NCBI GenBank assembly: GCA_038321315.1
Contig: JBBQEX010000043.1
Coordinates: 1-62,886 of the forward strand
DNA: 62,886 nt
Origin: Haliangiales bacterium
Lineage (GTDB): Bacteria; Myxococcota_A; Polyangia; Haliangiales; Haliangiaceae
Direction: 5' to 3'
Shown here: positions 37,191 through 40,467 of the stretch, in pieces
Layout: each line of letters starts with the position of its first letter
Numbering within the stretch: the first letter of the stretch is position 1
Program-made: the position numbers and the translations under genes
Notes under the pieces: generated by a model
What the model was told of the DNA's origin: nothing
The model's input: only the letters and a program-made list of their open reading frames with translations
The model's database searches: none

Positions 37191-37832
37191 ATGTCGCGGT
37201 CTTCGTCGGTGGCGGTGGTCGCCCTGGTGGCGCTCTTGACCGGCCGTGCGTGGGCCGATCAGCCGACCCCACCACCCGACGACACCACGGCGACCAAGCC
37301 CCCCGAGGACGATCGCGATCACGACCGCGATCTCGACCACGACACGACGCACCGGCCGGACCCCGAGCCCAAGCACCCGACCGAGCCCGTCGGCGATCCC
37401 ACCGATCGGCCGCTGTTCGCGCCGCGCCTCACGCGCGACGCGATGCACGACATCGTCGTCGACACGCCGGGCGAGCGATCATCGCTCAACATCGCGGTGC
37501 TCGCCGGGATGACGACGGTCGCGCTCGCCGGCGGCGTGTTCGGCCTCTACTACCACCTGCAGGGTCGGACCGCGGCGAACTCGGTATCGTCGAGCAGGTT
37601 CACCGGCAAGGTCTGGATGCCGGCCGACCAGGCCGCGGTCGACAAGGCCGATCGCGATCGCACGCGCGCGATCGTGCTCTACAGCGCCGGCGGCGCGGTG
37701 CTGGTCGCGGCGATCGTCGCGCTGATCGCCACGGATCCAAAGAGCACGCGCACGGTGATCCATCCGCATGTCGCGATGATCGCGCCGCTGCCCGACGGCG
37801 GCGTCGTGGTCGCGCGAGGCTGGACGTTCTGA
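37191..37832 (+). CDS. Secreted/membrane-anchored protein (signal peptide, Asp/Pro-rich acidic region, C-terminal TM), first of three overlapping genes.
   Basis: Signal MSRSSSVAVVALVALLTGRAWA. C-terminal TM IVLYSAGGAVLVAAIVALIA. Confidence 0.55.
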   Translation: MSRSSSVAVVALVALLTGRAWADQPTPPPDDTTATKPPEDDRDHDRDLDHDTTHRPDPEPKHPTEPVGDPTDRPLFAPRLTRDAMHDIVVDTPGERSSLNIAVLAGMTTVALAGGVFGLYYHLQGRTAANSVSSSRFTGKVWMPADQAAVDKADRDRTRAIVLYSAGGAVLVAAIVALIATDPKSTRTVIHPHVAMIAPLPDGGVVVARGWTF

Positions 37833-38431
37833 TGCGCGCAGCATTGCTGACGCTCGTGGCCCTCGCGGCGTGCAAGCCGGAGGTTGGCTACGACACCTAC
37901 CTGTGCGGCATCGAGGAGGATTGTCCCGAGGGCCAGCTGTGCAACGGCCCCGACGCGCGCTGCGTGAACGCGGCGAGCGTCGAGCCGTTCGCGTGCGATC
38001 CGAGCGTCGAGCACGAGCCCGACAACACGGTCGCGCAGGCGTTCGTGTTGCCCCCGCTCGCGTGCGCGTCGGCGCTGCTCTCCCAGGATGGCTGCATCGC
38101 CCAGGGCGACACGGAGGACTGGTTCGCGTTCGCGGTTCCACCCGATTGCACCGCGGTGGTCGCCCACCTGCGCATCTCGTATCCGATCGCCTTCGAGGAG
38201 GTCCCGTTCGAGATCGCCGATGCCGAGGGCAACGTGCTCGAGGTCGCCGGAGAGTGCGGCGCCGACGAGACCTCGCTCGCCGCGTACGGGCTCGTCGATC
38301 GCTGCTTGAAGCGCACCGTCACGCCAGGCAAGTCGTATGCGGTGCACGTCAAGGCCGACCCGGCGATGGCGTGCAACGGCGACTGCGCGTTCAATCGCTA
38401 CACGCTGACACTCCAGCTCGAAACCCCGTGA
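37832..38431 (+). CDS. Cys-rich lipoprotein (199 aa).
   Basis: ATG overlaps the upstream stop (TGATG). Lipobox LVALAACKP. Multiple Cys pairs. Confidence 0.55.
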   Translation: MRAALLTLVALAACKPEVGYDTYLCGIEEDCPEGQLCNGPDARCVNAASVEPFACDPSVEHEPDNTVAQAFVLPPLACASALLSQDGCIAQGDTEDWFAFAVPPDCTAVVAHLRISYPIAFEEVPFEIADAEGNVLEVAGECGADETSLAAYGLVDRCLKRTVTPGKSYAVHVKADPAMACNGDCAFNRYTLTLQLETP

Positions 38432-40467
38432 ACTTCGACTGGAACTGGCAGTGCGTGCCGTATCTCGCGTGCGTCGTCGCGCTGGTCGCGCTCGGCTTGA
38501 TCACGGTGACGATCCGCGGCGATCGCGTGCTGCGGCTCGGCGTGCTCGGTGCGGTCGCGACCACGTTGCCGTGGGCGTTCACGTCGGTGCTTGCGGCGTC
38601 CACCCAGGACCCGACCCTCGCGGCGCGCCTGTTGCGCCTCGGCAACGGCCCGGTCGCGTTGATCGGCCCGAGCCTCTTGCTCGTGTTGCTCGGCGTGACC
38701 GGCCAGCTCGAGCGCCATCGCTGGCTCGCGCGCACCGCGGCGCTGATCGGCGTCGTCATGATGACGCTGTGCTGGAGCACGGACTGGATCGTGGCGGGCG
38801 TGCACCGGCTGCACTGGGGCATGTACTACATCAGCGCTGGACCGCTGACGCCGCTCCATCTGTCGCAGCTCGGGATCTGGCTGGTCGTCGGCATGGTGAT
38901 CGCGCGCCGGACGTCGACCTCGCGCGAAAAGCAGGGCACGTCACGCCTGATCCTCGCGATCCTCGCCGGGGGCGCGATCGGCTCGGGCGACCTGCTGCTG
39001 GTCTACGACGTCTGGGGCATGTACCCGATGGCGTGGTTGCCGACGCTCGCGGGATGCGGCGTCGCGCTCTACCTCGTGCTGCGCACCGATCTCCTGCGAC
39101 CGCAGGGCGTCGATCGCGGCGCGGTCATCGAGCTGATCACGTTCGTGATCGCGACCGTCATCGTCGGCTACATCGTCGTCATGATGACCGGCGCCACCGA
39201 GATCGCGATCGCGCTCGTCGCCAGCGGCGTGTGGGTCGTCGCGCTGGCGATCGCGTGGGGAATCGCGGCACGCGTGAACCGCGCGGTTGCCCCCGACGCC
39301 GAGTCGACCGCGGTCGCCGAGCTCGGCAACACGCTCGCCGAGCTGCGCGACGACAAGATCATCGGGGATCGGCTGGCGACCGCCTGGGCCCGCCTCGGGA
39401 TCACGAACGTGACGCTGGTGCGCGATCCGTTGCCGATCGAGGTGACCGACTGGCTCGTGACGCTCAAGGAGCCACTCGCGTCGGGCGATCTCGCGACGAT
39501 GCGCGTCGGGCCGATCCGCCAGAAGCTCGAGGCGATGTTCGTCGACGACACCACGCTGATCGTGCCACTCGTCGATCGCGGCTCGTTGCTCGGCGTGATC
39601 CGCGGGTCGCACGAGCGCGCGCTGCGTGACGTGACGCGCGGCATCGTGCTCGAGAGCGGGCGCGTCGTGGCGCGGGCCCTCGCGTTTGCCCAGCTGACGC
39701 GAGCGGCCGCGGAGCAGGGCGAGGTCGCCCGCGAGGTCGAGGTCGCCAGCGCGATGCGCTTGCAGGCCGCGGCGAGCCGCGGTGACGAGCTCGGCGCGTG
39801 GTCGGTCGGTGCCGAGTATCGCAGCGCCGCGCGCACCACCGGCGCGAGCTGGTCGAGCGCGCTCCTCGAGGATGGTCGGCTCGCACTGCTCGTCACCGAG
39901 GCCGAGGCCCACGGCGTGCCGGCTGCGCTCGCGACCGCGGCGCTGCGCGGGGCGTTCGCCGCGACGACGTCGACCGGCGACAGCTCGCTCGATCTCGATC
40001 AGCTGCTCGCCGGGCTGCGCGCGACCGCCGACGGCATGGTGCGCGGTGGCGAGCCGCTCGCGGCGTTCGTCGGGATCCTCGATCAGACGAGCAACACGAT
40101 CGCGTGGGCGTCGACCGGGCATCCCGGTGCGGTGATGGTGTCGGCCTCGGCGGCGTTCGCCGACTCGCTCGGCGAGCCGAACGCGTTCCCGCAGGGCTCG
40201 ATCGACGGCCGGCGTCCCAAGGCGGTCGCGCTCGGCGGCAAGCCGGGCGCGATGGCGATCGGCAGCGCGAGCCTGCCGGCCGACGCGGTCATCGTGATCG
40301 CCTCGAGCGAGCTGCGCGGCGATGACGAGGTGCGCTGGCGGATGCGCCTGTTCGAGCTCGCCGCGAGCGGGTCGCGGATGCCGGGCCTCCTCGTCGAGCG
40401 CGCCCTCGAGCGCGGTACGCCCCTCGAGGACCTGCTCGCGGTGGTCGTGCGCGTTCGCGCCGCCTAG
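38428..40467 (+). CDS. Integral membrane PP2C/SpoIIE-type phosphatase: N-terminal multi-TM domain (7TM-DISM-like) plus C-terminal PPM/SpoIIE-like domain.
   Basis: GTG start overlaps the lipoprotein stop (GTGA). About 7 hydrophobic helices in the first 300 aa. SpoIIE-like motif LLVTEAEAHGVPAALATAALRGAF. Confidence 0.6.
   Translation: MNFDWNWQCVPYLACVVALVALGLITVTIRGDRVLRLGVLGAVATTLPWAFTSVLAASTQDPTLAARLLRLGNGPVALIGPSLLLVLLGVTGQLERHRWLARTAALIGVVMMTLCWSTDWIVAGVHRLHWGMYYISAGPLTPLHLSQLGIWLVVGMVIARRTSTSREKQGTSRLILAILAGGAIGSGDLLLVYDVWGMYPMAWLPTLAGCGVALYLVLRTDLLRPQGVDRGAVIELITFVIATVIVGYIVVMMTGATEIAIALVASGVWVVALAIAWGIAARVNRAVAPDAESTAVAELGNTLAELRDDKIIGDRLATAWARLGITNVTLVRDPLPIEVTDWLVTLKEPLASGDLATMRVGPIRQKLEAMFVDDTTLIVPLVDRGSLLGVIRGSHERALRDVTRGIVLESGRVVARALAFAQLTRAAAEQGEVAREVEVASAMRLQAAASRGDELGAWSVGAEYRSAARTTGASWSSALLEDGRLALLVTEAEAHGVPAALATAALRGAFAATTSTGDSSLDLDQLLAGLRATADGMVRGGEPLAAFVGILDQTSNTIAWASTGHPGAVMVSASAAFADSLGEPNAFPQGSIDGRRPKAVALGGKPGAMAIGSASLPADAVIVIASSELRGDDEVRWRMRLFELAASGSRMPGLLVERALERGTPLEDLLAVVVRVRAA

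Follow-up and report, generated by a model that had tools for sequence, protein, structure and literature searches.

A co-conserved three-gene envelope unit of Haliangiales and Kofleriaceae-type myxobacteria whose membrane-bound PPM-fold protein is most likely a pseudophosphatase

Myxobacteria have many membrane-anchored SpoIIE/RsbU-type proteins, hardly any of which have been characterised, and the locus described here raises the question of what such a protein does when two small envelope proteins are encoded directly upstream of it. The window, that is, the whole stretch of 62,886 nucleotides analysed (contig JBBQEX010000043.1 of assembly GCA_038321315.1, from a Haliangiales bacterium), has about 70% G+C and contains long open reading frames (ORFs) in every frame. 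Three co-directional genes, here called g1, g2 and g3, occupy positions 37191-40467; g1 and g2 share a TGATG overlap of 1 nt and g2 and g3 a GTGA overlap of 4 nt, exactly as the original prediction had placed them. The G+C content at third codon positions (GC3) is 0.90-0.94 across the three frames, which we take to be coding because homologues exist for all of them (more than 300 for g3, 22 for g2 and about 50 for g1). On balance, we lean towards the view that g1, g2 and g3 make up a three-component envelope signalling module of Haliangiales/Kofleriaceae-type myxobacteria, in which an accessory-assisted sensor would have a pseudophosphatase as its output.

Across genomes, g1, g2 and g3 are conserved together as a unit. 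When one genome per GTDB species was scanned, 69 g3 loci were recovered, all of them from Kofleriaceae, Haliangiales or unclassified Myxococcota metagenome-assembled genomes (MAGs). Where a locus extends far enough upstream of g3 to tell (roughly 60 loci), g1 and g2 directly precede g3 in about 50 cases. Neither of the two occurs without the other, at least 31 of 50 loci retain their 1-nt stop/start overlap, and none of the loci examined has a homologue of g1 or g2 apart from a g3 homologue. The association extends to distant relatives of g3, since g1-g2 precede g3 in six of the seven loci concerned and the triad arrangement precedes canonical g3 relatives with 28-36% identity in L073, L074, L077-L080 and L108, loci L077-L080 coming from a metagenome scan with the four-sequence alignment A4. 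Matches to hidden Markov models (HMMs) in the distant loci reached expectation values (E) of 1e-48 to 1e-57 for g2 (L077-L080) and 1e-29 to 1e-37 for g1. Furthermore, the most distant g2 homologue (P0142, in L108) sits in the full cluster, the order of the triad is kept in L073 despite a changed upstream neighbour, and P0133 and P0042 bear consecutive locus tags. The original prediction had staked itself on the three genes being conserved together, and so they are, in about 50 loci and in distant relatives too. The transmembrane and GAF parts of g3, together with g1 and g2, diverge about twice as fast as the syntenic neighbours. In a mirror-tree comparison with a species proxy regressed out, g2 correlates with the transmembrane part of g3 at r 0.45, with the GAF domain at 0.27 and with the PPM domain at 0.29; the genome pairs being non-independent, this co-divergence of g2 and the g3 membrane domain may be read as a weak hint of gating by a partner.

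Several loci depart from the simple order. In five of them two extra genes lie between g2 and g3 (L027:2446-3557, L029:6841-7989, L033:6826-7988, L052:7034-7989 and L066:6972-7283), the one encoding a small Pro-rich lipoprotein (MSRC..LLL..AC) and the other a protein of about 250 amino acids (aa) that contains the ExxH motif twice (DELRH and DEVRH) and has the look of a ferritin-like di-iron protein. On two metagenomic contigs, homologues of g3 occur as tandem copies below a single g1-g2 pair, three in L078:3977-10103 and two in L079:3983-8105. At L073:2-466, on a short contig, an ORF ending ...GFRYWF stands upstream of the triad in the place of the PilZ-domain gene described below and looks like a small outer-membrane beta-barrel.

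What kind of protein, then, is g3? An AlphaFold2 model built from a 28-sequence alignment (mean predicted local distance difference test score, pLDDT, 82.8) and hydropathy predict nine transmembrane helices and not the seven or so proposed initially; in the model they span residues 7-28, 33-57, 62-90, 98-117, 141-162, 165-192, 203-219, 230-252 and 258-286, with a short extracytoplasmic beta-hairpin at 122-137. The predicted periplasmic loops are at most 23 residues long, that is, periplasmic exposure is very small. The cytoplasmic loops are Arg-rich and carry the invariant motifs RGDxxxR and GQLERHR, and the distribution of Arg and Lys over the loops fits an N-out, C-in topology; the domains that follow are therefore expected in the cytoplasm. 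These are a GAF-like alpha/beta domain (residues ~290-430), a long helix and a C-terminal alpha/beta sandwich. GAF matches (PF01590/PF13185) are precomputed for many g3 homologues, and the g3 family profile, searched against the PDB sequences, matches the GAF structure 3p01 (E 2.2e-4, profile positions 281-432) and no PPM chain; against Pfam, g3 of the window itself has no GAF match at E <= 0.01. In the membrane region the sole match is HisKA_7TM (PF16927) over residues 16-184, at 23.1 bits (E 7.6e-5) and thus below the cut-off of 28.6, and many homologues carry a precomputed match to the same family. A 7TMR-DISM sensor had also been envisaged; the Pfam search returned no such match at E <= 0.01, and NCBIfam gave none to g3 at all. 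The architecture is 9TM-GAF-PPM and not 7TMR-DISM-SpoIIE. More than 300 full-length homologues share about 50% identity with g3, and every one of them derives from Kofleriaceae, Haliangiales or 'Myxococcales' MAGs and metagenomes.

The C-terminal domain of g3 has the alpha-beta-beta-alpha sandwich fold of the PPM superfamily and matches SpoIIE (PF07228) at 38.1 bits, above the cut-off of 25, so that the idea that a polytopic membrane protein ends in a domain of PPM/SpoIIE fold holds; the match covers residues 482-590 and only profile positions 2-106 of 192. By phmmer, g3 is also related to Rv1364c (E 1.5e-7), and in that alignment GGDWFD of Rv1364c stands opposite GASWSS of g3, and GDVVGHG opposite TEAEAHG. 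In SpoIIE, the metals are bound by D628, D746 and D795 and by the carbonyl of G629 (PMC5468089). We took the SpoIIE and RssB reference sequences from PDB phmmer alignments seeded with RsbU, the N-terminal 111 residues of the seed being identical to PDB 2j6y; the residue mapping rests on alignment with closer canonical relatives, and the SpoIIE numbering was verified. The outcome (Table 1) is that g3 does not present the ligands of a binuclear metal centre, namely the Asp residues of motifs I, II, VIII and XI and the G629 carbonyl. In addition, the 8-9 residues that follow motif VIII (canonical G..G.RR[LF]) are deleted.

This remodelling is a property of the whole clade. A search with the PPM domain, which covered 1.84 billion cluster representatives, turned up only a small close family of g3, with 39 representatives at E < 1e-10; the same search returned proteins of about 700 aa, at ~30-35% identity, that have the whole 9TM-GAF-PPM architecture in common with g3. 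Whereas these canonical relatives display G-D-x-W, [GA]-D-[VAT]-x-x-[HRK]-G, [ST]-D-[GA] and [DE]-D, all 121 close g3 family members examined show G-A-x-W, T-E-[AGT]-...-G, S-[S/T/R...] and [ED]-D. Of the four Asp residues that bind metal in the canonical proteins, two are thus gone throughout (Ala at 473; Ser, Thr or Arg at 627), and the bridging Asp is Glu in every one of the 121. PPM is nevertheless the best-conserved part of g3, with a mean pairwise identity of 64% against 55% for the transmembrane and GAF regions, and identity rises to 82% in the core of the former active site (466-515). Judged from these comparisons, the domain is not decaying; its remodelled core is under strong purifying selection. 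We conclude that g3 belongs to the PPM superfamily by descent and fold and is, most likely, a pseudophosphatase. Of the phosphatase proposed at the outset, the PPM fold and the SpoIIE match stand; the enzymatic part is doubtful, given that the catalytic Asp residues kept by relatives of the same architecture are replaced in 121 of 121 sequences. Automatic annotation names the g3 family 'SpoIIE family protein phosphatase', a label that, as far as enzymatic activity goes, probably misdescribes this clade.

Elsewhere in the 9TM-GAF-PPM clade, four otherwise canonical members (P0204, P0251, P0253 and P0272) have independently lost single catalytic residues, the Asp of motif VIII being replaced by Arg, Gly or Ser and that of motif II by Ala. 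Such scattered single-residue losses suggest a repeated relaxation of catalysis in the superfamily.

The second gene encodes a predicted lipoprotein, as first proposed. The N-terminus of g2 (MRAALLTLVALAAC) contains the lipobox LAAC, which fits the L-[AS]-[GA]-C rule; the lipobox Cys14 is invariant in 22 of 22 sequences, and 12 further Cys residues are invariant in the 22 homologues (alignment A2). These 12 Cys could form six disulfides, and a protein in which they are invariant is therefore expected to be oxidised and exported. In the AlphaFold2 model (pLDDT 85.5), a small Cys-rich N-terminal part is followed by a C-terminal beta-sandwich with a conserved EPD(N/D) motif. With Foldseek, the modelled sandwich superposes on the collagen-binding domains of ColH and ColG and on a pre-peptidase C-terminal (PPC) domain of B. 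anthracis (3jqw, 1nqd, 2o8o and 5sv5; E 3e-6 to 1e-5, template-modelling scores 0.72-0.83), and we assign it, on the strength of this model, to the PPC/collagen-binding-type fold. No Pfam or NCBIfam family matched g2 of the window, Pfam PPC (PF04151) included, and the PPC model touches just one of the 22 family members (E 0.027).

As for g1, it had been described as a secreted acidic protein with a C-terminal membrane anchor, a description that gives way to another topology. A signal peptide (aa 1-22, cleavage AWA|D) is followed by a variable Asp/Pro-rich linker (aa 23 to ~75, with 13 Asp and 13 Pro in 53 residues), by the conserved motif DIVxDxPGERS and by two hydrophobic helices placed by hydropathy, TM1 at ~98-120 and TM2 at ~158-183, with a net-positive loop of about 38 residues between them. 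The family alignment of 50 loci indicates that the linker is lineage-specific, being absent or almost absent from many homologues, and that the tail, predicted to be periplasmic, ends in a nearly invariant GGAxxGGxWSF; the tail of the window protein reads ...GGVVVARGWTF. From these features g1 is predicted to be a two-helix inner-membrane protein with short periplasmic ends. An outer-membrane beta-barrel, prompted by the terminal aromatic residue, was considered and rejected, g1 being too short and having two clear hydrophobic helices. No Pfam or NCBIfam family matched g1. Its homologues were gathered by tblastn and HMM on fetched loci; a k-mer-indexed homology search returned only 6 matches, probably because the low-complexity linker filled the candidate list.

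Table 1. The g1-g2-g3 unit, mapped active-site positions of g3 and flanking genes in the window
Feature	Positions	Strand	Details
g1	37191-37832	+	ATG start, 213 aa (translation)
g2	37832-38431	+	ATG start, 199 aa; ...TTCTGATGCGC..., 1-nt overlap
g3	38428-40467	+	GTG start, 679 aa
g3 membrane domain	38428-39285	+	aa 1-286, nine predicted transmembrane helices
g3 GAF domain	39295-39717	+	aa ~290-430; homologue Pfam matches, family profile, AlphaFold2
g3 PPM/SpoIIE-fold domain	39760-40467	+	aa ~445-679, remodelled active site
g3 Ala473	39844-39846		SpoIIE D610
g3 Glu491	39898-39900		SpoIIE D628
g3 Ala492			SpoIIE G629
g3 Ser627	40306-40308		SpoIIE D746
g3 Glu667-Asp668	40426-40431		SpoIIE D795-D796
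150-aa protein	33641-34093	+	upstream operon, gene 1
Stp1-like PP2C	34090-35931	+	613 aa, long unannotated C-terminal extension; Pfam PP2C 57.4 bits
169-aa protein	35912-36421	+	upstream operon, gene 3 (operon 33641-36421)
PilZ-domain protein	36414 to ~37130	-	divergent; Pfam PilZ 31.2 bits; exact start uncertain
SPFH/Band-7 membrane proteins	40486-41607, 41604-42815	+	Pfam Band_7; overlapping pair

The trio is embedded in a larger and well-kept neighbourhood. Read from 32851 in the window, the conserved order is a receiver gene (-), the genes of the 150-aa protein, the PP2C and the 169-aa protein (+), the PilZ gene (-) and then g1-g2-g3, and this larger cluster is kept even where g3 is only 28-36% identical (L074, L076-L080 and L108); the upstream PP2C operon belongs to the same deeply conserved cluster. 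The PilZ gene is the most constant neighbour of g3, being found in 62 loci and abutting g3 where g1 and g2 are missing, and it also occurs in the distant loci L074, L076-L080 and L108; in its product the RxxxR and DxSxxG motifs are intact, and the C-terminal half resembles a receiver. The 613-aa PP2C reaches 225.9 bits with NCBIfam Stp1_PP2C, whose cut-off is 230, while the 150-aa and 169-aa proteins match no family and are 58-80% identical across loci. On the other side, the SPFH pair starts 18 nt after g3 with no terminator-like site between them in a terminator scan; by tblastn synteny the pair lies downstream of g3 in about 30 of the 69 loci, with 70-80% identity across loci, and the two genes are therefore facultative neighbours. 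The promoter and terminator scan as a whole was uninformative, with sigma-70-like sites absent and terminator-like ones about as frequent as chance would give.

No STAS, RsbW-type/anti-sigma or kinase gene was found adjacent to the trio in a scan that took in 20 ORFs from 25.8 to 53.3 kb, nor any STAS or anti-sigma kinase gene among the called genes of L001, L074 and L108; the nearest Ser/Thr kinase genes in the window lie at 26612-28261 (-) and 51496-53313. The original prediction that no cognate kinase or anti-sigma partner is adjacent is thus borne out, with the addition that the trio stands among the PilZ gene and the PP2C operon. A partner-switching module was rejected for the trio on the same ground, no STAS or RsbW genes being nearby.

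Two adjacent Hsp70-like genes lie further downstream in the window (45405-49963, -), one of ~940 aa starting MTRYLIGIDLGTTNSAVAF and one of 580 aa at 48221-49963; in L108, an HSP70+DUF3731 gene (972 aa) is directly downstream of g3, and Hsp70 may belong to the conserved neighbourhood. The most G+C-rich stretch of the window (0.77) is found at 5708-8164 (-), where two ORFs (5708-7057 and 7109-8164) have a first-position G+C content (GC1) of 0.85-0.91, above their GC3 of 0.81, and could encode low-complexity proteins or be mis-framed.

How might the unit work? In the reading that we favour, g3 would be the transducer, with a nine-helix membrane domain that offers nearly no periplasmic surface, a cytoplasmic GAF domain and a PPM output domain. 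By analogy with the SaePQ-SaeS system of Staphylococcus aureus, g1 and g2 would most likely be accessory proteins supplying the extracytoplasmic surface that senses a ligand or a state. The lipid-anchored g2, together with g1 through its transmembrane helices and WSF tail, may modulate the g3 helix bundle via membrane or periplasmic contacts, and the signal would travel from the bundle through GAF to a 'switch' region of PPM. The ancestral output would have been the hydrolysis of phosphoserine or phosphothreonine; in the lineage of the window the binuclear metal site has been dismantled (Asp to Ala473, Asp to Glu491 and Asp to Ser/Thr627). Since the site is dismantled and yet its core is under strong purifying selection, the output is most likely non-catalytic, a conformational or binding switch by which a cytoplasmic partner would be bound or released. 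The PilZ-receiver-like protein and the Stp1-like PP2C are candidate partners by their constant adjacency only.

Several observations weigh against this reading, and each lends itself to another account of the locus. At the metal site, Glu491, Glu667 and Asp668 are kept, invariant or nearly so, and two apparently canonical relatives likewise have Glu in place of D795; a modified site, mononuclear for example, with residual or altered catalysis by g3 is a doubtful though serious possibility. These three residues at or beside the site, together with the retained His-Gly of motif II, the strong purifying selection on the site, the PPM fold with its above-threshold SpoIIE match and the canonical relatives that share the triad and are presumably active enzymes, would also suit a g3 that is an active membrane PPM/SpoIIE phosphatase gated by g1 and g2, its substrate (a STAS anti-anti-sigma factor or the target of a Ser/Thr kinase) being encoded elsewhere. 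We nevertheless find an active phosphatase unlikely, because the site lacks two of its four carboxylates in every one of the 121 family members, the bridging Asp is Glu, the M2-binding Gly is Ala, the 8-9 residues after motif VIII are missing, the family profile detects no PPM chain among the PDB sequences and no STAS/RsbW-like substrate gene was found among the neighbours scanned. Alternatively, the remodelled PPM domain may have acquired a new chemistry or ligand, either a phosphoprotein or a small molecule, in one pathway with the cyclic di-GMP-type PilZ protein or the Stp1-like PP2C. The high identity of residues 466-515, the persistence of PilZ beside g3 in loci that have lost g1 and g2, the retention of the PP2C operon in all distant loci and the independent catalytic losses in P0204, P0251, P0253 and P0272, which suggest that catalysis has repeatedly been dispensable, would agree with it; this evidence is, however, purely correlational, the conservation of PilZ and PP2C may merely reflect synteny, no motif for a new ligand was found in g3, and we give a new chemistry or ligand little credence.

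Concerning the link between g3 and its two upstream genes, the whole region from the PP2C operon through PilZ to the trio is syntenic across lineages, and adjacency is therefore not independent evidence, as the co-occurrence may partly be inherited gene order. Furthermore, about 11 loci, mostly of one clade, have g3 beside PilZ without g1 and g2, as does the distant locus L076 in having g3 alone of the three, so that g1 and g2 may be dispensable or replaced by something else. It could accordingly be argued that the trio is adjacent only by inherited order, g1 and g2 being an independent envelope pair (for instance a lipoprotein with a structural or binding role and its partner in the membrane) while g3 senses the membrane or a GAF ligand alone. 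Such an account would accommodate the two unrelated genes between g2 and g3 in L027, L029, L033, L052 and L066, as well as the g3 periplasmic hairpin, which does not differ between genomes with and without g1 and g2, a comparison of little power since the genomes without them are mostly of one clade. We hold it to be improbable, in view of the fact that homologues of g1 and g2 were never apart from a g3 homologue in the loci examined, P0142 in L108 included, that the order of the triad survives both a divergence down to 28-36% identity and the new upstream neighbour in L073, and that g2 and the g3 membrane domain show residual co-divergence.

Taken further, the module that we favour would be an ancient myxobacterial envelope-sensing triad, in one lineage of which a PPM enzyme became a conserved pseudoenzyme switch, with active and 'dead' orthologues coexisting and possibly with PilZ and the Stp1-like PP2C as associates; we put this wider picture forward as tentative and rather less than probable. 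Were it true, the triad would be a natural system for the repurposing of a PPM phosphatase into a non-catalytic signal transducer. Canonical and degenerate g3 orthologues share the same gene context and offer a tractable comparative system for the evolution of bacterial pseudoenzymes, and the unit is a candidate case, outside the histidine kinases, for the control of an intramembrane-type sensor by a lipoprotein and a membrane protein. Two previously unannotated envelope proteins, g1 and g2, are tied to g3 in a three-gene unit. Until both a cultured host and a phenotype are at hand, the practical impact stays limited, and little here will be very surprising to specialists.

Compared with known SpoIIE/RsbU-type PPMs (PF07228), such as SpoIIE and RsbU of B. 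subtilis, Rv1364c of M. tuberculosis and SiaA of P. aeruginosa, g3 differs in that its metal-ligand Asp residues are replaced (A473, E491 and S627). Its nine-helix, HisKA_7TM-like membrane domain is unrelated to the transmembrane region of SpoIIE, and a GAF linker is present. Unlike in the SpoIIE/RsbU systems, no STAS/anti-sigma partner-switching genes lie near g3, which is instead preceded by a dedicated pair of a lipoprotein and a membrane protein. In the searchable literature we found no description of the g3 family or of the triad; a paper on the myxobacterial phosphatome mentions only a GAF-SpoIIE fusion in Sorangium (PMC2887360). Pseudo-PP2C domains have precedents in RssB of E. coli (PMC6546054, PMC10755785) and in PHLPP2 (PMC12002173). 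The C-terminal domain of RssB, human TAB1 and PHLPP2 are, however, soluble and associated with other partner domains, for example a receiver, whereas the putative pseudo-PPM of g3 is the output of a membrane-GAF sensor whose canonical orthologues of the same architecture persist in sister lineages.

On the sensing side, g3 resembles HisKA_7TM (PF16927) and 7TMR-DISM proteins in fusing a multi-helix N-terminal membrane sensor to a cytoplasmic signalling output, but its match is sub-threshold, it has nine helices and it has no 7TMR-DISM extracellular domain. The sandwich of g2 resembles PPC (PF04151) and clostridial collagen-binding domains, superposing on ColG and ColH with a template-modelling score of ~0.8 and having EP(D/N) at the start of the domain. 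Unlike these domains, g2 stands alone as a lipoprotein instead of being appended to a protease; its putative disulfides number six, it has an additional Cys-rich module at its N-terminus, and the Pfam PPC model all but fails to detect it. A functional analogy is offered by S. aureus, where the lipoprotein SaeP and the membrane protein SaeQ modulate the intramembrane kinase SaeS (PMC3748130, PMC5083920). As in SaeP-SaeQ-SaeS, and also YycH/YycI-WalK, a lipoprotein, a small membrane protein and a near-loopless sensor are encoded in an operon, and the accessory proteins are dispensable in some backgrounds. There is, on the other hand, no kinship in sequence or fold between the two systems; g3 has a PPM-fold output in place of a histidine kinase, the host is Gram-negative, and the role of g1 and g2 as accessory proteins is inferred only. 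The unit brings together a membrane PPM sensor, a pseudo-PPM domain and an accessory-assisted sensor, each of a kind already known, and is not a new category.

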